Below, piece after piece: positions 18,364 to 51,977 of a stretch of 64,000 nt of DNA (position 1 is its first letter; the number at the start of each line of letters is the position of its first letter). Origin of the DNA: an uncultured bacterium (GTDB lineage Bacteria; Patescibacteriota; Saccharimonadia; UBA4664); assembly GCA_963740635.1 (NCBI GenBank), contig CAVUEQ010000001.1, forward strand, positions 740,840-804,839, given 5' to 3'. The notes beneath the pieces are model-generated. The model saw only the letters and a program-made list of their open reading frames with translations. It made no database searches and was not told the origin of the DNA. The position numbers and the translations under genes were made by a program.

Positions 18364-18500
18364 TGTGCGGGCAACCCCGCGGCTGGTTGAGCGCTGAAGC
18401 GCTGACTGGCCGCGGGACCCACGGAATTATTTGACCTGCCTTCTAATGGGTAGGTCATTTTGTTCTCCCAAGTGGGTACTAATTTCGGTACGTATGGCTT

Positions 18501-18570
18501 TTTTTATATCATATATGGGTTCAGCGCGATACCATATATGGTATAGAAAGTCAGATACATCGTAAGGGAT
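18501..18570. repeat. Conserved about 70-bp AT-rich palindromic intergenic element, copy 1 of 2 (family with the CCATATATGG palindrome).
   Basis: TTTTTATATCATATATGGGTTCAGCGCGATACCATATATGGTATAGAAAGTCAGATACATCGTAAGGGA. Copy 2 at about 40496-40567 shares about 80% identity. Contains the perfect palindrome TACCATATATGGTA. Confidence 0.6.
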
Positions 18571-18587
18571 AGTGCCGGGTGGTGCGG

Positions 18588-21917: not shown

Positions 21918-23621
21918 TTACTTGCTTTGTGCGACTGTAATCGTAATCGATATTTTATCAGACCGGCTGGGCATGCTCGACTGCCAGGGGGGCGAAATGC
22001 TGATATCGGCGCGGGTAACGCCGGGCAGGCCGGAGGCGGTATTGGACGCATCGCCGAAGCGCTGGCCCTTGAGCCGGTCGGCGATGGCGGCCTTGTCGAG
22101 TTTGGCGCCGCCGTAGGCCTCGGTGGTGAGGTGGAAGGTTTGGCGGCCGGCCGAATCTTTGTTGGCGGCCGTTACCTGCGCGTTGCCCAGGCCGTCGTCG
22201 TAGATCTGGTTGTTGCTCCCCACTTGTTTTTGTTCCACGACATGCAGCAGGTCGGAATAATCGGACTTCTTGACGGCCAGCACCGTGTAGGTGACCTTGA
22301 ACGACAGGTGACCGGTGTCTCCCTCGGAGCCGACGGCGGGAGAAGAGCTAACGTTGTCGGTGGTAACGGTCTGGGAAGCCGGAATGGCGACGTAGCCGCT
22401 CGGTACCCGGGCGGCGAGGTCACGGGCCGAGGCGTCTTTGTCCTTGTCGAGCAGAGCGGCTTTTTCGGTGTCGACGTCGGACTGGGCCACAATCGTCACC
22501 GTCTTGGTGGTACCGCCTGACATTTGCGCGCCCTGGCCATAAATTTTGGCCTGCATCGAGCCGCTATAGCCGGGGATGGAATATTTGGCCGGCGCTTCAT
22601 TGTAGGTGTCGCCGGATTGGTCGGCCTCGACCGGGATGGGGTCGGATTTGCCTGGGTTGAGAACGATTTGACCTCCCTGCAGGCCAACGGTGGCCCCGGG
22701 GACAGAGCTGTCGGCGGTGGTGCGGAAGATTTTGCCGTCGGGAGCTTGGAAGCGGGTGCCCGCCACAAAGGCGTGCGAGCTGGTGTCGTATTCGTTGTAA
22801 GCCGTGATGTTGCCGGAGGCCTTGGTGCCGGCGTCTTTTTTACCGGTGGGCGTGAACGGGCCGTTGAGGTCTTTGCTGACCGTGACGGTCTGGCCGGCCA
22901 GCACGGCGGCGCCCTGGTCGGTGGCGCCGGCGGGGTCGATGGCGTAGGTGGTGTCCACGCTGACCTTGCTGCCGGTGGCGTACAGGGTGACCTTGGCCGA
23001 GGTAAACAGGTACATGGCGAGCATGTAACCGCCCACCAACACCACGCCGGCGCCCACCCACATCACCCGGCGCTGCAGCCGGCCGAAATTCGGGACTTTG
23101 GGCGGTTTTTTGGCCTTGGCGGGGGCAGCATCGGTGGGGGCGGCAGCGGCATCTTCGGACGGTGATTCGAGCGGATTGGTGGCGGAGGGCGGCGGCGGGC
23201 CGTCGCTGATGGGCAGGCGGCGCAGCAGCGGCTTCTTGGGGATCTTGGCCGCCGGGGGGACGGGCTGCTCAGGGGCCGGCGGCGGCTCGGGGTCGCCGGC
23301 CTCTATCACCTCCTCGCCGGTCTTGAGGTCCTCGGGCATTTTGGCTTCGGTCATCACGGCCTTGGCCCCGACCGACGGCGCCACCGCCAGGCCCACCCGG
23401 GCCGCTAGCTCGGTAGCGATGCGGTCGCCCGTGACCAACACGATTTCTTTGCCGCCTTGGTCCGCCGCCTTTTTGAGCAGTTTGAGATTAATTATGCTCT
23501 GCAGCATCGTCGAGCGCTTGGGTACGACGATTTGGACCGGCCCCTCACCAGACTTGCTCAGCTTATCAATGGCCGACGTGATGTCTTCATCGACCTCCAA
23601 ATAGAGGGCGTTGTCCTTCAT
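21918..23621 (-). CDS. Hypothetical bitopic membrane protein: cytoplasmic N-domain (about 95 aa), Pro-rich linker, one TM, large extracytoplasmic domain.
   Basis: 567 aa. TM VMWVGAGVVLVGGYMLAMYLF. No recognisable catalytic motif. Confidence 0.5.
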   Translation of the reverse strand: MKDNALYLEVDEDITSAIDKLSKSGEGPVQIVVPKRSTMLQSIINLKLLKKAADQGGKEIVLVTGDRIATELAARVGLAVAPSVGAKAVMTEAKMPEDLKTGEEVIEAGDPEPPPAPEQPVPPAAKIPKKPLLRRLPISDGPPPPSATNPLESPSEDAAAAPTDAAPAKAKKPPKVPNFGRLQRRVMWVGAGVVLVGGYMLAMYLFTSAKVTLYATGSKVSVDTTYAIDPAGATDQGAAVLAGQTVTVSKDLNGPFTPTGKKDAGTKASGNITAYNEYDTSSHAFVAGTRFQAPDGKIFRTTADSSVPGATVGLQGGQIVLNPGKSDPIPVEADQSGDTYNEAPAKYSIPGYSGSMQAKIYGQGAQMSGGTTKTVTIVAQSDVDTEKAALLDKDKDASARDLAARVPSGYVAIPASQTVTTDNVSSSPAVGSEGDTGHLSFKVTYTVLAVKKSDYSDLLHVVEQKQVGSNNQIYDDGLGNAQVTAANKDSAGRQTFHLTTEAYGGAKLDKAAIADRLKGQRFGDASNTASGLPGVTRADISISPPWQSSMPSRSDKISITITVAQSK

Positions 23622-23679
23622 GCCTATTAGACTACCATAATTGTTAAGGTTGCGTTATAGTAGGCTCAACTAATAATAG

Positions 23680-23964
23680 GTGAGCACTAACAACATGGCG
23701 AAGAGGGAAGCAAAACTTAATCCATTAGTGGTAGACCGCGTACTGCTGGTGGGCGTTCTTTTGGCAGCCACGGGCTATATTATCCGGGGCAGTTGGCCGT
23801 CCGAGTTCTTCTACGCCAGTGCATTGATTCTCGGCGTTGTTTGGTCATTTAGGGCGATTACGACCAGCAAGTCGCGCGAGTTCCGCCTGCTCGCCACGCT
23901 GCTGCTTGTGCTGCTGGGTGCCTTGCTGGCTTTTGCCCTTGGCTCAGCCAAAACCGTCGTCTAG
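23680..23964 (+). CDS. Small membrane protein (3 TM).
   Basis: 94-aa ORF with hydrophobic segments. Confidence 0.45.
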   Translation: MSTNNMAKREAKLNPLVVDRVLLVGVLLAATGYIIRGSWPSEFFYASALILGVVWSFRAITTSKSREFRLLATLLLVLLGALLAFALGSAKTVV

Positions 23965-24705
23965 CCAGCGCTATATTTTTTGTATTGATATTTGCGACCG
24001 GGTGCGTTATGTTAAACGCCCCTGATGGGTTTTTCGGCCTCGCCGATAACTCATCTGGATAGACTTCCCCGCCGGCGCCTACATGCGGCGAACCATAAGC
24101 GGGGAGGCGGCCTCGGGCTGGACGTGCAAGGGGTTGTGCATGTACAGCCCGAGGTTCAGGCTCCAAAAGCCCGGGCCAGGAAACGACGTTTATGGATGGG
24201 TGGCGTCGTCTGGCCTGCCCTGGATCGGCTCGCCTCGGCCGATATTCCGGGGACACCCGGTGAGATAGAGTGGACGCAGCGGGGAAACCTGTAGCGGGTC
24301 TCACCGGGTGGGAAAAACGTTCCGGTGGAGTCATTCCCTTCGCTTCACCGGAACAAGGAGACACGGATGGCCTGGCCGCCTGGAGGCCGGCAACCGTCTC
24401 TCCAGTGAGAAGCCCAGTGGGGGCAGCGCCGGCTGACGGGCCACCCGCTGCCCCCCTGGGTCTCGCACCTTCCAACTTGGGACATTGTCCCTCTCAGATG
24501 TGCTCCGGTACGAGCTTCCCCCGTGGCTCAAGCTGGAGTAACACCGGCCCGGCGGGCGATTTTTACCCGCCGGGCCGGCAAATCATCTTGTTAGTCTGCG
24601 GCTTGCCCGCGGACCGGCCGGAAACCCCCGGCTGCCTAGTCGCTCAATGAGCGGTTTGCAGTCGGGGCGAACGCAATTATTTGATCCTAAGCTTGGCCAT
24701 AACCT
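23965..24705. ncRNA. About 740-nt GC-rich non-coding gap downstream of ftsA with several strong hairpins. Candidate structured RNA of unknown class.
   Basis: No ORF longer than 70 aa in a coding-like frame. Hairpins CCGGCGGG-cgatttttac-CCCGCCGG (24548-24575) and CCGGTGGAG-N12-CTTCACCGG (24321-24350). Confidence 0.2.
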
Positions 24706-25998
24706 TTAAGACGAAATAGCCCGGGCGAGCTTGCGGGCGAGGGTGTCGGTGGTGGACTGCCCGCCGGCCTGGTCGAGCCCGAGGTTGGCCAGGCCCATGG
24801 GGGTGATGTCGGCGTAGCTGGTAAGCTTGCCGGTTTTGTCGACCACGCGGTTGACCTCGCTGGGGCTGATGTGGTTGACCACCGGCTTGCGCGCGAAGGC
24901 CAGACTCTTGTACCACTCCTTGCCCTTGAGCGCGTCCATGATTTGGGGCAGCCCGGTGCCGCCGCCGCAGAGCAGAATTTTGGCCGGGAGGTGGTCGACG
25001 CGGTCGAACTCGGCCAGGGATAGTTCCACGCCGGACAGCCACACCTGGATGTCGGCGTTCACGGCCTCCTCGACCAGCTTGGTGGCTTTGACGCCCAGCT
25101 TGCCGGTGCCGTAAGCAATTTTCATTTCCTCGGCTTTTTCGAAACTGGTATTGGCCACCTGGGCGATGCGCTTGGTGAAGGCGCGGCCACCGATGGCGAA
25201 CATTTTGGTGCCTTCGACGCCGCCGTTGTTGACCAGCGCGATGTCGGTGGTGCCGCCGCCAATGTCGATGAAGATAGCTGAGAATTCGCCGGAGTCCTGG
25301 CCGCCCACGGATTTGGCGACCGCGAACGGCTCGGCGGCGATGTTGATGAGGTTGAGGTCGAGGTCGGAGGCCACGGTTTGCAGGGCGCCGAGGTGAACCA
25401 TGGGGGCAAAGGCGTTGAAGAGTTGGATTGACACGTCTTTGCCCTGGAAGCCGATGGGGTTGGTGACGCGGTAGCCGTCGATCTGGACGTCGACGATGGC
25501 GGTGTTCACGAGCTTCACCTCGAGCTCCTTGAAGCCGGTTTCCCAGGTGAGCTGCTCGCGGGCGCGCTCGAAAGCGCGGTATTGGACGCGGTCGAGGATT
25601 TTGCGCAATTCGGTCATGTCGATGGGGTCCGACGGTGTGGCGCGCTTGTAGCGCACGATGGTACTGGCGCCCTTCACCAGTTCGCCGGCAATGCCGATGA
25701 CCACGTCTTTGGCCACTACGCCGGCCCCGCGCTCGGCCATTTTGAGGGCGGCGTCGCAGTTTTCGACCACGCCGGTGATGTCGGTGACGGCGCCGGAGCT
25801 CATGTCGGTGAGGCGCTGGCGCTGGCGTCCCACGCCCACAATTTCCACCTGCGAAGGCACCCCCGAGGCCGGGTCAATTTTGACCTCGCCAATGAGGGCT
25901 TTCACAAACTCAGTCCCGATATCGAGGGCCACAAGATAGCGCGGGCCGGGAGGGCGGCTGCGGAGTTTAACGAATTTTTCGAGCAATTTGGCCGGCAT
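24706..25998 (-). CDS. ftsA: Cell division protein FtsA.
   Basis: Actin-like ATPase motifs (LVALDIGTEFVKAL, GIAGE, IFIDIGGGTTDIALV, ILLCGGGTGLPQI). Confidence 0.85.
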   Translation of the reverse strand: MPAKLLEKFVKLRSRPPGPRYLVALDIGTEFVKALIGEVKIDPASGVPSQVEIVGVGRQRQRLTDMSSGAVTDITGVVENCDAALKMAERGAGVVAKDVVIGIAGELVKGASTIVRYKRATPSDPIDMTELRKILDRVQYRAFERAREQLTWETGFKELEVKLVNTAIVDVQIDGYRVTNPIGFQGKDVSIQLFNAFAPMVHLGALQTVASDLDLNLINIAAEPFAVAKSVGGQDSGEFSAIFIDIGGGTTDIALVNNGGVEGTKMFAIGGRAFTKRIAQVANTSFEKAEEMKIAYGTGKLGVKATKLVEEAVNADIQVWLSGVELSLAEFDRVDHLPAKILLCGGGTGLPQIMDALKGKEWYKSLAFARKPVVNHISPSEVNRVVDKTGKLTSYADITPMGLANLGLDQAGGQSTTDTLARKLARAISS

Positions 25999-27669: not shown

Positions 27670-28314
27670 AATGCTTACGTATCTTATTGTAACAAACTAA
27701 TTCTGCAATTTCTCATATTGCTTTAGATACCCCTTTATGTTTTAATGCTCACGTTCGCACCTTCCCTGGTGGTGTGAGCAATGTAGTGTGATGCCAGTCT
27801 CTTTCGAGACCTGGTGACGTTGGAGCCTGGTGGCACAACGCGGGTAACCCCGCGCCAAAACCACCATTATTAATTTTTCGCCGCGTGCCACAGGCGCCGG
27901 CTTCAAACCCGGCCCCTCCCCTGTCTCGCGCAAAAATTAATCCCCTCCACACCCCCCAGATCACCGCGAACGGTGCATCCGGCTTCCGGCCAAACTAAAC
28001 GGCGGCAGCCAGAATGCATCTTCAAGGCGATAAGCATCAACAATACAACTTGTTAAACGCACCTTCGATCATGCCATTCTGGTGATCCTTCGGGATCATG
28101 CCGCGCGTGCAGCGCAGCCCACAGCCGGCCGATCGGTCGCAACAAGCACACACCATCCCAGACTTTGTCGCCTTGTGCGACGAACGACGAAGGTACGAAC
28201 GCTAGGCCGTTCCGGGCAACCGGAGCGGCCTCGTACCCTTTTAGGGGCATGTTATTATCTGTGCGAGCTCCCTGCTCATTGATTTTGTGATCCCGGCGCC
28301 TGAGGAGGCAAACC

Positions 28315-29112: not shown

Positions 29113-29183
29113 CAGCGGTTTCGCAGGGACTCCCAGGGTTGACCGGCTTCCAATCGCGGAAGCCGGTCAACCCCTGACCGCTC

Positions 29184-29768
29184 TTGCTTTTCGTACGATT
29201 TGTGCCATTATATAGAATGTCCGCAATACCCGGTTACTACCTGGCAAGGCACCGTGAAAGGGTGATGTTCATGAAGAACAGGCTGTTTTTGTACGGAACG
29301 CCGGCGTTAGTGGCGGCAGGCTGGTACTTGCTCCTGCTGTTTGGGCCGCTGAAGACCACTTTCGACTGGGGCGGGTGGCCGCAAGTGTTGCTGGTTCTGG
29401 CCGGCGTGCCGCTCGCCGTCGGGGCCTGGATCATCGTCCTGGCTGTCCCGCGCTGGAAGGCGTGGGGGCCGGAGCGCGGATCGGCGAATACCGATGCCAG
29501 CGGCCTGCCGGGGTTCCCCGAAGATGATTCCGCCTCAACCGCTGCCCCACCGCCGCTGCCCGTGGCAGCTCTGGCCGGCACACCGGCCCGGACCCCTAAC
29601 GGCCACCGGCGCCCGGGGCAACTATTCGTGACGGTCCTGCCTCCCAGGTCTGCCCGCGAGGAGTATGCTAAGGCGTACTCTTCTTCACGCCTGGTAGCAA
29701 ACTACGTCAGCACTCATGGGCGGATACCCATTGCTGATGAGACGGGGCGCCATCGGCGCCTCGAGTAG
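29184..29768 (+). CDS. Hypothetical membrane protein (2 TM). Start more likely the internal Met at about 29265.
   Basis: TMs ALVAAGWYLLLLFGPL and VLLVLAGVPLAVGAWIIVLAV. Confidence 0.4.
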   Translation: MLFVRFVPLYRMSAIPGYYLARHRERVMFMKNRLFLYGTPALVAAGWYLLLLFGPLKTTFDWGGWPQVLLVLAGVPLAVGAWIIVLAVPRWKAWGPERGSANTDASGLPGFPEDDSASTAAPPPLPVAALAGTPARTPNGHRRPGQLFVTVLPPRSAREEYAKAYSSSRLVANYVSTHGRIPIADETGRHRRLE

Positions 29769-29845
29769 GAAGGTACGCGGACGCAAGGCCGGTTCCGAAC
29801 TCGGAACCGGCCTGAGTCTTGCCAAAATGCTTATGCTTAATTGTA

Positions 29846-35158: not shown

Positions 35159-36340
35159 TTACAGCTCGCGCAGGCGCTTGACGATTCCGGGGAGAACCTT
35201 GATGACCTGGCCGATTGACCCTGATGTGGCCGACCGCCCGAGGGTGAGGCGCAGGCTGCACTGGGCCTCGGCGGAGGTGCGGCCAATGGCCAGCAGCACG
35301 TGCGACGGGTCGAGGTTGCCGGTGGAGCAGGCCGAGCCGGTGGAGGCTTGGATACCGGCGTTGTCGAGGTAGAGCACCATGGCCTCGCCCTCCGCGCCGG
35401 GAATGGTGAGGTTGAGGTTGTTAGGCAGGCGGCGGCGCGGATCGCCGTTGAGGCGCGCATCCGGGACGGCGGCGGTGACGGCGGCGGCCAGCTGGTCGCG
35501 CAGGGCTCTGAGGCGGCGGGATTCGGCCTCGCGGCCGGCGGCGGCCAGCTCCAGGGCACGGGCCAGGCCGGCGATACCGGCCACATTTTCGGTGCCGCTG
35601 CGCCGGCCGCGCTCCTGGCCGCCGCCGTACACCAGGGGCTCGAGGCTGGTGCCATGCCGCACGTACAGCGCGCCGGTGCCTTTGGGGCCGTAGATCTTGG
35701 AGCCGCCGATGGTCAGCAAATCCACGCCGAGGCGCGTGACGTGCAGGTCGAGGTAGCCGGCGGCCTGCACGGCGTCGGTGTGGAGGTAGAGCGGCAGGGT
35801 GATGCCGCGGCGGTCGCGGTCGGTGCGGACCCGCGCGACTAGCTTGCCAATGTCGGCGATGGGCTGGATGGTGCCGATTTCGTTGTTGGCCATCATGACC
35901 GACAGGAGGACCGTTTGGTCGGTGATGGCGCTCTCAATTTCAGCCGGGTCGACGATGCCGCTAGGTTTAACGCTGACCGCAGTTGCCTCGTGTCCCTCAC
36001 GCTTTAATGGCTCCACGCAGCCCAGAACGGCATCATGCTCGATAGCGGTGGTAACCCAATGCGCCCCCGGGTGGGCCCGCAGCACCCCCTGCACCGCCAG
36101 GTTGTCGCCCTCGGTGCCGCCCGAGGTGAACACGATTTCGGTCGGTTTGGCGCCAAGAATGCCCGCGATGGAGCGCCGGGCCGCTTCGACCGCCCCACGG
36201 GTTTCGCGCGCCGCGGCATAAAGGCTCGAGGGGTTGGCAAAATCCCGCTCGAGGTATGGGCGCATAGCCTCAAGCACCGCCGCGTCGAGCGGGGTAGCGG
36301 CTGCGTGGTCGAGATAAATTGGCTGCAAAGGTTGGCCCAT
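35159..36340 (-). CDS. Cysteine desulfurase (class V aminotransferase, IscS/NifS-like).
   Basis: TSGGTEGDN, HTDAVQAAG, PLP-Lys in GGSKIYGPKG, C-terminal active Cys in STGSACS. Confidence 0.85.
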   Translation of the reverse strand: MGQPLQPIYLDHAAATPLDAAVLEAMRPYLERDFANPSSLYAAARETRGAVEAARRSIAGILGAKPTEIVFTSGGTEGDNLAVQGVLRAHPGAHWVTTAIEHDAVLGCVEPLKREGHEATAVSVKPSGIVDPAEIESAITDQTVLLSVMMANNEIGTIQPIADIGKLVARVRTDRDRRGITLPLYLHTDAVQAAGYLDLHVTRLGVDLLTIGGSKIYGPKGTGALYVRHGTSLEPLVYGGGQERGRRSGTENVAGIAGLARALELAAAGREAESRRLRALRDQLAAAVTAAVPDARLNGDPRRRLPNNLNLTIPGAEGEAMVLYLDNAGIQASTGSACSTGNLDPSHVLLAIGRTSAEAQCSLRLTLGRSATSGSIGQVIKVLPGIVKRLREL

Positions 36341-36382
36341 GGCCGCTAATTATGCCAGCTTACAAGCAGCTTTTCAATGAGC

Positions 36383-36478
36383 GAGGTCCGACCTTCACCG
36401 TGTTACTGGAATCCCGGTTGTGTTTGAGAACTACTTGAGCGTAAGCGGGATTCCGGTGTTTCGCTCAAGGTCGGACCT
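36383..36478. repeat. REP-like palindromic doublet (two inverted copies) at the 3' side of the RAYT gene.
   Basis: GAGGTCCGACCTTCACCGTGTTACTGGAATCCCGG (36383-36417) and the inverted GGGATTCCGGTGTTTCGCTCAAGGTCGGACCT (36447-36478). Confidence 0.65.
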
Positions 36479-37013
36479 TGGCCCTTGACAGGTACTCCAG
36501 GTAGTCGCATGGCGTATCAAATAGTTGTAATACCGGCCGGGGGTCGACAAAGCTAGAAGCGCTGTCTGGCTGGAGGTAAACCTGCAGGCTGGAATGTTGG
36601 TGTTGGCGCCAGCCGAGTCCTGCGCGCTCCGGGTTTCGGTGGATATAGCGCGACTCCTCCATAAGGTGGGCAGCCCCAGCCACCCGGCTTGCCTTGTATT
36701 TTCCCTGAAACAATGGCCCAATACGCAAGTGGCGCTGGTTGAAGTAGATAACATACCCGGTAATTAACCTCTGGAACCATCGGCCCATTGCCCCGGTTTC
36801 AGTTTGGCTTAGTAATACGTGGAAGTGGTTCGGCATGAGGCAAAAAGCGAGTAAAGTAACGCTCGGCTCCCGCTCGAGGGCTTGGTGCATCTGCAACTTG
36901 AAGCGCTGGTGGTCATGGTGATCGAGGAAGATACGCCTGCGCTCAACCCCCCGGTTGTATGCATGATAAATGCCTTGGGGTAGGTCTTCTTTGATCGTGT
37001 GGCGAGACGGCAT
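36465..37013 (-). mobile_element. REP-associated tyrosine transposase (RAYT) / IS200-like Y1 HUH transposase TnpA. Start taken at internal MPSRHTIKED...
   Basis: HUH motif MPNHFHVLL. Catalytic Tyr context SRYIHRNP. N-terminal MPSRHTIKEDLPQGIYHAYNRG resembles the IS200 TnpA start. Flanked by REP-like repeats. Confidence 0.8.
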
Positions 37014-37045
37014 GTTTGACAGCCTAGCACCTGGTCCGTCGACCG

Positions 37046-37080
37046 GCAAGGTCCGACCTTCACCGTGTTACTGGAATCCC
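37046..37080. repeat. REP-like sequence, third copy, 5' of the RAYT gene.
   Basis: AAGGTCCGACCTTCACCGTGTTACTGGAATCCCGG is identical over 31 nt to the 36383-36417 copy. Confidence 0.7.
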
Positions 37081-51079: not shown

Positions 51080-51354
51080 GGCGGTTACCTCCTCTCAACA
51101 GGTCTCGTATCAAACAACTTCGATTAGAAATTTCGACCAGGCTACGATACAACTAAGTGCGAGGAATAGCAATCTACTCGCGGTCCGAATGTGCTGTTCT
51201 TTGTATGGGTGATTTGTGTGTTCCTGAATTGTTCGGTAAATGTTTGCTTATATACGAAGATGTACTAAAATGTAAGTACAAATGATTCGCTTTCCGAACT
51301 GTCACCGTATGGTGTGCGTGTCTGGGACATCCAGACTAGGAGGCGGATCGCTTG

Positions 51355-51972
51355 TTATTTAAAACGCCAAATATTTTCGATTCGTTTTTTAACTATTCGT
51401 TGATACTCATCATCGCCGGAATTGACAGTATGATAGATCGATCCGGAGAGCATGTCCGCTAGCTGGATCAGTACGTTCTCTTTTGAATCTACGAACCTTA
51501 GAGATTTGATTATTCTGTCATCTCCCTGATTGAGCTGAGCCCTCAAGTACGATCCAGCTGCTCGCTTATACGTTCTGTCGCCTCGTCCGTCGAGCTTAAT
51601 CTTGGCGTCGATAATTTTGCCTTTTGCATCTTTAAGCAACAACTTTATGGCATAGTTATAAAACGAAGCGCGGTTATGCTTAAGTTCCTCACTGTTGATG
51701 ATTGACTTATCAATTACCAGAGCTCGGACTCGGAAATTATTCCCGCTTACCCTTTTGAGAAATGCTTGTTTTGTTTGGGCGTTTGCTCTGTTGAAATGAA
51801 ATTCGTGGGAGTCCGGGCGCTTCAGCTCCCGTCTGAGTAATTTAATATCTACCGCAGTTTTCTCGGCAGCTAGATCATCCTCAAAGATAACCGCGACTAG
51901 TACGAAGTATTTTGTGGAGCCCCTGTTGATTTTAAAGCCAGCGTCGCCAGATTCATCGATAAAGACCAACAT
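51355..51972 (-). CDS. DUF3800 family protein, AT-rich, start 5 nt after the pcrA stop.
   Basis: MLVFIDESGD ... IQLADMLSGSIY are DUF3800 hallmarks. Followed by an about 270-bp AT-rich non-coding stretch. Confidence 0.7.
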   Translation of the reverse strand: MLVFIDESGDAGFKINRGSTKYFVLVAVIFEDDLAAEKTAVDIKLLRRELKRPDSHEFHFNRANAQTKQAFLKRVSGNNFRVRALVIDKSIINSEELKHNRASFYNYAIKLLLKDAKGKIIDAKIKLDGRGDRTYKRAAGSYLRAQLNQGDDRIIKSLRFVDSKENVLIQLADMLSGSIYHTVNSGDDEYQRIVKKRIENIWRFK

Positions 51973-51977
51973 CTGGC

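Follow-up and report, generated by a model that had tools for sequence, protein, structure and literature searches.

A hairpin-dense non-coding gap beside an ftsA-like gene of Saccharimonadia and the structured transcript it may give rise to

What could a bacterium with hardly any DNA to spare be keeping in several hundred nucleotides that encode no protein? Saccharimonadia and other CPR bacteria have genomes of less than 1 Mb with little spare DNA. To our knowledge almost nothing is known about non-coding RNAs in CPR bacteria, and a literature search on such RNAs in Saccharibacteria or the CPR found nothing relevant. The locus analyzed here belongs to a G+C-rich Candidatus Saccharimonadia (TM7, Patescibacteria), the nearest loci with ftsA-like proteins all being from Saccharimonadia/Saccharibacteria MAGs. 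Within the 64,000-nt stretch of DNA that was analyzed (the window), positions 23965-24705, 741 nt in all, separate the stops of two convergent genes, one for a small membrane protein and one for a divergent FtsA-like protein (Table 1). A previous sequence-only reading had presented this gap as a candidate structured RNA that it could assign to no class, located 3' of ftsA where ftsZ would be expected, in a region of tightly packed genes. The packing is only moderate: about 86% of the window is coding according to a crude gene map, and since there are a dozen other gaps of 180-900 nt, it is not uniformly tight. Comparisons were made with 180 related loci (1.5 Mb), 80 of them from GTDB, 80 from metagenomes and 20 from exact-protein look-ups.

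The gap is real non-coding DNA, as had been proposed for these approximately 740 nt. Three ORFs are present inside it, of 89 and 126 aa on the + strand and of 205 aa on the - strand, but their third-position GC (0.52-0.64) lacks the bias of the neighboring genes (0.81-0.86), and their translations are rich in Arg, Pro, Gly and Ala. When these ORFs and the ten longest six-frame fragments were compared with Pfam (E<=1), only a chance match to a TT_ORF2-like model was obtained, with 16.1 bits for a cutoff of 24.3. A search for homologs of the 205-aa and 89-aa ORFs among 5.8 billion proteins found none, and tblastx of the gap against the 180 related loci gave one chance match only.

The idea that ftsZ is expected at this position, or has been replaced by the gap, did not stand up to comparison. 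A tblastn search with E. coli FtsZ found nothing in the gap or in the 180 related loci, and elsewhere in the window only a chance match with an E value of 7. No Tubulin/FtsZ Pfam signal appeared in any of the six frames of the gap at E<=1. The degraded ftsZ frame that, according to the sequence-only reading, would have made the gap a pseudogene was not found. In relatives with 82% FtsA identity or less (L092, L007, L008, L094, L095, L009 and others), the gene for a GlxA-barrel protein starts a few bases past the ftsA-like stop, which indicates that ftsZ never sat in the gap. A pseudogene of ftsZ or of any other gene was rejected, there being no residual translated similarity by tblastn, tblastx or six-frame Pfam searches. 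The ftsA-like gene is itself divergent, matching the Pfam FtsA family (8e-15) with partial coverage and the NCBIfam ftsA model with 115.5 bits, under its 175.85 cutoff, although FtsA proteins are the best PDB relatives of its product. The small membrane protein gene matched no family in Pfam or NCBIfam; it is conserved at the equivalent position in relatives (tblastn 1e-30 to 1e-10, 39-61% identity).

Known RNA classes were considered next to the possibility of a decayed gene. Rfam models at their gathering thresholds, applied to the whole window, gave no match in the gap, and with lax filters and E<=10 the region 23600-24800 showed no RNase P, tmRNA, 6S, SRP or large non-coding RNA match. The check proposed in the sequence-only reading for RNase P RNA (RF00010/RF00011), tmRNA, 6S and SRP RNA was therefore negative even at E<=10. 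The only matches in the gap at E<=10 were attributable to chance: those to miRNA models, and one to Scr4115 in both orientations of the 13-bp hairpin described below. ARAGORN predicted no tmRNA, its only calls being two tRNA-Ala genes elsewhere in the window. The covariance models of OLE, ROOL, GOLLD, HEARO and raiA matched neither the gap nor its versions in relatives. Rfam searches of 18 related loci yielded nothing except a sub-threshold hammerhead in L084. This type III hammerhead core was found only in slots of relatives, the same core being present in L171, and no hammerhead or other small self-cleaving ribozyme was found in the gap of the window at Rfam E<=10.

The gap had also been said to contain segments loosely resembling the P4 strands of RNase P RNA. 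The strings do exist, one of them being AAAGCCCGGGC at 24166-24176, but their frequency is that of chance: the pattern AAAGNCCGGGC occurs 9 times against 9.6 expected in a window as GC-rich as this one, and GAANCCCGGCT 10 times against 8.0. Both lie inside local hairpins of the MFE fold, and by eye neither is contained in the L082 and L083 versions of the region. RNase P RNA (RF00010/RF00011) was rejected, with no model match, P4-like strings at chance level, and a slot of only 46-154 nt in the relatives L169, L179 and L173. Next to no credence can be given to a housekeeping RNA of known type (RNase P RNA in expanded form, tmRNA, 6S or SRP RNA), for which these two short strings are all that speaks, or to the remains of a protein-coding gene such as ftsZ, there being no FtsZ or other translated similarity; the region is moreover missing or unrelated in close relatives.

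Although it belongs to no known class, the gap is predicted to fold to an exceptional degree. On the + strand, the segment 24010-24600 has an MFE of -330 kcal/mol (z = -10.1 relative to dinucleotide shuffles), and the - strand of the gap has a z of -8.7. Among the 14 intergenic gaps of the window this is the most extreme, with a z of -9.5, followed by values of -6.9 and about -5, the remaining ones ranging from +0.4 to -2.8. When MFE was scanned along the 64 kb in sliding windows with correction for GC, the gap was also the longest and top outlier. Its GC content (0.62) is similar to that of coding sequence, while most of the other intergenic gaps have 0.42-0.55 and two reach 0.60-0.66. Perfect hairpins of at least 9 bp are concentrated here: five of the 30 found in the 64 kb are inside the gap, which makes up 1.2% of the sequence (Poisson estimate, about 3e-5), and its hairpin count is unmatched by any other 700-nt stretch in the 1.5 Mb of related loci. 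Parsing of the MFE structure gave 15 hairpin units between 24021 and 24667. The long perfect hairpins singled out in the sequence-only reading are real, one with a 13-bp stem and the other with 12-nt arms. A second copy of any of the approximately 15 hairpins could not be found in the window or in the 1.5 Mb of related loci, and comparison of the gap with the window and of the gaps of different loci with each other revealed no repeat unit. Other UTR-like gaps of the window (18364-18587 and 27670-28314), as well as their equivalents in relatives, are likewise structured in the orientation in which the adjacent gene is read.

The components of the chain are listed in Table 1.

Table 1. Genes flanking the gap and predicted elements within it (positions in the window).
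Feature	Position	Strand	Description
GlxA-barrel gene	21918-23621		567 aa
Small membrane protein gene (orf94)	23680/23695-23964	+	Probable ATG at 23695, 89 aa; upstream of the hairpin chain, same strand
Sigma-70-like promoter candidate	23985-24013	+	TTGATA-17-TATGTT; 9/12 in consensus scan, just past the stop of the small gene
Proposed structured transcript, ~660 nt	24020-24685	+	Start inferred from promoter candidate, end from terminator-like motif
5' two-tier hairpin (W1)	24021-24058	+	Outer stem CCUGAUGGGU/ACUCAUCUGG, inner CGGC-CUC-GCCG
Long hairpin	24109-24156	+	19 pairs, 3 of them G.U
Two adjacent hairpins	24172-24252	+	16 and 13 pairs; P4-like string AAAGCCCGGGC at the foot of the first
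Hairpin with GAAA-capped inner stem	24254-24310	+	Perfect 12-bp outer stem
14-pair hairpin	24319-24354	+	24321-24350 in the sequence-only reading
Two more long hairpins	24357-24475	+	GGAGAC...GUCUCUCC and GAGAAGCCCAGUGGGGGCAGCG...
Perfect 13-bp G+C hairpin	24544-24578	+	9-nt loop; 24548-24575 in the sequence-only reading
3' terminal two-tier hairpin	24626-24667	+	CCCC...GGGG; -28 kcal/mol
Terminator-like U/A-rich tract	24672-24682	+	CGCAAUUAUUU tail; distance to the ftsA-like stop, 24 nt
Divergent FtsA-like actin-fold ATPase gene	24706-25998	-	Convergent with the hairpin chain

The 3' terminal element has the G+C-rich hairpin and the following U-rich tract of an intrinsic terminator, and a terminator-like call was made on the + strand at 24654-24672 plus GCAATTATTT. 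A comparable arrangement is present downstream of an unrelated + strand gene, where a hairpin is followed by CGGAAUUAUUUGA (18364-18432; CGGAAUUAUUU at 18422-18432). Given its occurrence after hairpins at this other gene and in relatives, the tail is best read as the terminator signal of the lineage. No terminator was called between the small membrane protein gene and the hairpin chain, so that read-through from this gene is as possible as initiation at the promoter candidate.

The predicted structure is not symmetrical with respect to strand. The + strand of the gap is 31-37 kcal/mol more stable than the - strand, and in every long version found in relatives the small gene's strand is favored over the complementary one by 20-37 kcal/mol. 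The fold of the gap contains 32 G.U pairs on the + strand versus 15 on the - strand, and stable loops of RNA type (cUUCGg, cUACGg, cCUCGg and gGAAAc) are present on the + strand. In a strand-symmetric test, single mismatches were classified within helices taken from folds that allowed Watson-Crick pairs only; six loci together gave 25 G.U versus 6 A.C mismatches (binomial p 0.0009), the window alone contributing 6 and 0, respectively. This G.U excess and the stable loops favor selection on RNA pairing in the + orientation, with strand-biased C-to-T mutation as another possible source. For the body, the proposed structure is based on thermodynamic prediction together with this strand asymmetry. 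The exceptional and strand-asymmetric fold, along with the promoter-like and terminator-like sequences that frame it, bears out the view that the gap is a candidate structured RNA outside the known classes.

Comparison of the same slot among relatives revealed how changeable it is. Among members of the clade at about 83-92% FtsA identity, the junction between the ftsA-like and GlxA-barrel genes is a variable slot holding 0-4 kb of differing content, and in the closest lineages a gene homologous to that of the small membrane protein lies there, on the strand opposite to the ftsA-like gene. At around 90% FtsA identity the slot may hold no more than one 46-nt terminator or as much as 376-881 nt that are just as rich in hairpins. 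On the strand of the small gene, z is -9.5 for the 741 nt of the window, -12.2 for L082 (592 nt) and -11.1 for L083 (376 nt), and the 881 nt of L167 have an MFE of -416.5 kcal/mol. Long versions are also found in L176 (803 nt, before an extra gene; z -9.9) and in L175 (745 nt, without the small gene; z -8.3). At the other extreme, L169 and L179 have 46-47 nt with one bidirectional terminator, and L173 has 154 nt with a weak fold (-0.23 kcal/mol per nt, versus about -0.5 in the long versions). Close relatives can thus do without the long chain.

The bodies of the long versions differ in length and have no sequence in common by blastn, and no k-mers in their unpaired regions were shared by the six of them. 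Blastn of the gap against the 180 related loci found only the identical L081, and neither the phage and plasmid collections nor two pattern scans of viral contigs gave a match. On these sequence comparisons, the gap is a lineage-specific element that appears to have changed beyond recognition between close relatives. Lack of covariation in related genomes had been named in the sequence-only reading as an argument against a structured RNA. For the body this argument largely applies: relatives offer no alignable counterpart, and some have only the 46-nt terminator. The near-identical pairs (L082/L087, L167/L168 and window/L081) show 100% identity across the region and hence carry no information on micro-evolution.

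The ends behave differently from the body. A 5' two-tier hairpin shape is common to the window, L082 and L083, with different base pairs in each (as judged by eye from separate folds). The three also share a 3' CCCC...GGGG hairpin followed, after 4-6 nt, by an identical CGCAAUUAUUU, and L101 apparently has a similar 3' hairpin arrangement. At the equivalent position to the promoter candidate of the window, promoter-like sites with 10 of 12 consensus positions each were found in L167 (TTGACA-17-TAGTAT) and L176 (TTGACA-17-TAATAT), while the consensus scan found no site in L082 or L083. Canonical terminators are present in L167 (by eye) and L176, and in the latter the unit lies between two genes, the next of which has a separate promoter and RBS.

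The best reading of these results is that the + strand would give rise to a structured transcript, either as a 3' extension of the mRNA of the small gene or as a unit of its own. We infer transcription, the ends of the transcript and its role from the features described above. Transcription would enter by read-through from the small gene or at the promoter-like site, would pass about 15 consecutive stable hairpins, and would end at the hairpin and its AAUUAUUU tail, with about 24 nt left to the convergent ftsA-like stop. The structured 3' block could halt transcription before its antisense entry into the ftsA-like gene, and could also shield the transcript from 3'-to-5' exonucleases. The most likely role would be cis-acting and independent of sequence. 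That the body is free to change, that the chain can be replaced by one terminator and that other UTR-like gaps are structured as well point to a role exerted through hairpin content. We favor, with a probability of roughly 0.45, the view that this non-coding region, which is lineage-specific and fast-evolving, operates as RNA on the + strand and most probably in cis. Against this view, 15 hairpins go far beyond the needs of termination, L169, L179 and L173 do without the long chain, the bodies have no sequence, loop motif or length in common, the promoter scan was negative in L082 and L083, and the G.U excess might equally be due to strand-biased C-to-T mutation.

The same framing elements could belong instead to an independent gene for a trans-acting structured RNA of a new family, with its own promoter, a protective 5' stem-loop and an intrinsic terminator; such an RNA might, for example, sequester a dsRNA-binding factor (of RNase III type or another) as a decoy or sponge, or be processed into small RNAs. 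Promoter-like sites located exactly at the 5' end in three of five long versions, two of them scoring 10/12, fit such a gene, as do the 5' hairpin conserved despite changed pairs, the terminators of L167 and L176, the L176 unit with the next gene under its own promoter and RBS, and the strand-specific G.U excess. So does the maintenance of 370-880 nt in at least six lineages with sub-megabase genomes. However, it is missing from the close relatives L169, L179 and L173, it has no Rfam relative and no conserved sequence or loop motif through which a specific interaction could take place, and its near-perfect long stems are atypical of RNAs with tertiary folds. We consider a trans-acting RNA of this kind somewhat unlikely. 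A bolder version, which we regard as quite improbable, is that of a new RNA class with structure but without conserved sequence. Streamlined Saccharimonadia would maintain a dedicated unit with a conserved promoter region, a 5' cap hairpin and a terminator, and selection on the 350-850 nt of its body would ask for nothing more than a dense hairpin chain, with complete turnover between close relatives. The RNA would act in trans by offering dsRNA in bulk, as a decoy or sponge, to targets such as RNase III-like nucleases or, in epibiotic life, dsRNA-sensing factors of the host or of phages.

The variability of the slot could also mean that the gap is a functionless spacer at an insertion-prone site, with short-lived hairpins generated by mutation (template switching or local inverted duplication) and a strand asymmetry due to biased mutation. 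The slot between the ftsA-like and GlxA-barrel genes is a hot spot, with its 0-4 kb of unrelated content across relatives, the bodies are unrelated and of 46 to 881 nt, and the many perfect stems are those that young palindromes would predict. Nevertheless, ordinary gaps of the window are unstructured (z 0.4 to -2.8) and most of them AT-richer, idle DNA is usually deleted from streamlined genomes, and a consistent orientation, a G.U excess, conserved ends and framing by promoter and terminator are unexpected of junk. This explanation therefore seems unlikely to us.

Among known systems, the enterobacterial REP/BIME elements are chained imperfect palindromes that form clusters between convergent genes, and their 3' hairpins guard transcripts against 3' exonucleases. 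The gap resembles these elements and other 3' mRNA stabilizers as an intergenic chain of stable imperfect palindromes, often found between convergent genes and variable among strains. REP/BIME sequences are transcribed within 3' regions and function as exonuclease barriers or terminators indifferent to sequence; here the gap would be like them only as proposed. It differs in that REP/BIME constitute one repeated family with hundreds of copies, while each hairpin of the gap is unique in the 64 kb and in the 1.5 Mb of relatives. The gap also has conserved elements at both its 5' and 3' ends, as well as its own candidate promoter. If small palindromes that are mobile or repeated (REP/BIME-like or MITE-like) had been inserted here as a cluster, this would match the convergent location, the chained imperfect palindromes and the variable presence among relatives. 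We find such a cluster highly improbable, given that the approximately 15 hairpins are single-copy within the 64 kb and the 1.5 Mb of related loci, that terminal repeats and target duplications were not seen, that three lineages keep the ends at the same positions, and that phage and plasmid collections and viral contigs contain no match.

With intrinsic and bidirectional terminators the gap shares its 3' hairpin plus AAUUAUUU tail, and L169 has a single classic bidirectional terminator in its place; unlike these, the gap has about 14 extra hairpins over 600 nt upstream of the terminator. The large RNAs OLE, ROOL, GOLLD, HEARO and raiA are similar in size (400-800 nt), heavy secondary structure, transcription signals (candidates in the present case) and patchy distribution. 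These RNAs, however, have conserved sequence, junctions and covarying helices and are all in Rfam, whereas the gap matches none of them and has no conserved body between relatives whose flanking proteins are 90% identical. The likeness to RNase P RNA goes no further than two short strings resembling P4 strands, these being at chance level within local hairpins, with no covariance match and with the region missing in close relatives. The gap is best filed among known intergenic hairpin arrays and structured 3' regions, as a hypervariable member of unique sequence that is framed by conserved ends.

This analysis corrects two tempting annotations of the locus, those of an expanded RNase P RNA and of a lost ftsZ, the ftsA-like gene not being part of an ftsA-ftsZ pair in this lineage. 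It also indicates that a genome this small has room for 400-900 nt of non-coding sequence that is strand-specific and extremely structured, of a type that escapes family-based annotation and is completely turned over between relatives with 90% identical flanking proteins. If the sequence is selected, selection would act on its hairpin content rather than on its sequence, which would call for caution in covariation-based RNA discovery; if it is not, an unusual hairpin-generating process would be at work in a reduced genome.

The gene annotated as ftsA, on one side of the hairpin chain at 23965-24705, is a divergent FtsA-like ATPase. Its product scored under the NCBIfam FtsA cutoff and gave no match to Pfam SHS2_FTSA, and it shares 50-60% identity with its counterparts across many CPR phyla. 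The sequence-only reading had expected ftsZ next to this gene; its ancestral downstream partner is instead the gene encoding the 567-aa GlxA beta-barrel protein. The 89-aa gene call made within the hairpin chain is almost certainly false, since it lacked GC3 bias, showed no Pfam match and had no homolog that could be found. The coordinates of these and other features are listed in the table.

Features in the window and in the related loci L081 (identical to the window over the hairpin chain), L084 and L171
Feature	Position	Strand	Remarks
FtsA-like ATPase	24706-25998	-	
567-aa protein with GlxA beta-barrel domain	21918-23621	-	
89-aa gene call	24025-24294 = L081:6035-6304	+	source pipeline
Region with three long hairpins	18364-18587	+	convergent intergenic; z -6.9 on + strand
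Non-coding divergent region	27670-28314		645 nt; upstream of SH3/FtsA-like operon
Perfect 16-bp hairpin	29136-29173		one side of + strand gene 29184-29768
Perfect 12-bp hairpin	29786-29813		other side of the same gene
One very long imperfect hairpin (~45 bp)	about 36380-36480	+	region z -4.5
DUF3800-IX RNA	51284-51353	+	Rfam 66.7 bits, gathering 36.8
Hammerhead type III-like core CUGAUGAGUCCAAAAGGACGAAA	L084:6790-6832	-	ftsA/GlxA-barrel slot
Hammerhead type III-like core CUGAUGAGUCCAAAAGGACGAAA	L171:5259-5375	-	ftsA/GlxA-barrel slot

Structure was also evident elsewhere in the window, as measured by folding energy against shuffled sequence (z, more negative being more structured). In the convergent region the + strand fold was 35 kcal/mol more stable than that of the - strand; here a hairpin precedes CGGAAUUAUUUGA, the tail also present at the 3' end of the chain beside the FtsA-like gene, with a second U-tract terminator located 3' of both. 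The divergent region gave a z of about -5 on both strands, the - strand, which is the operon sense, being more stable by 30 kcal/mol. Its counterparts in relatives span 500-900 nt and have z of -2.5 to -8; their sequence is not conserved. The two perfect hairpins are probably terminators, and the ~45-bp hairpin is flanked by - strand genes (35159-36340 and 36465-37049). The DUF3800-IX RNA match is enclosed in an 898-nt non-coding, AT-rich gap (51080-51977, GC 0.44).

Besides a hammerhead-like core, a (CACCUG)n tandem repeat is found in the gap of L084. The hammerhead-like core in this locus reached 27.9 bits in Rfam (E 0.088), under the gathering score of 48.5, and is identical to that of L171, both relatives having it in the same variable junction between the FtsA-like and GlxA-barrel genes.
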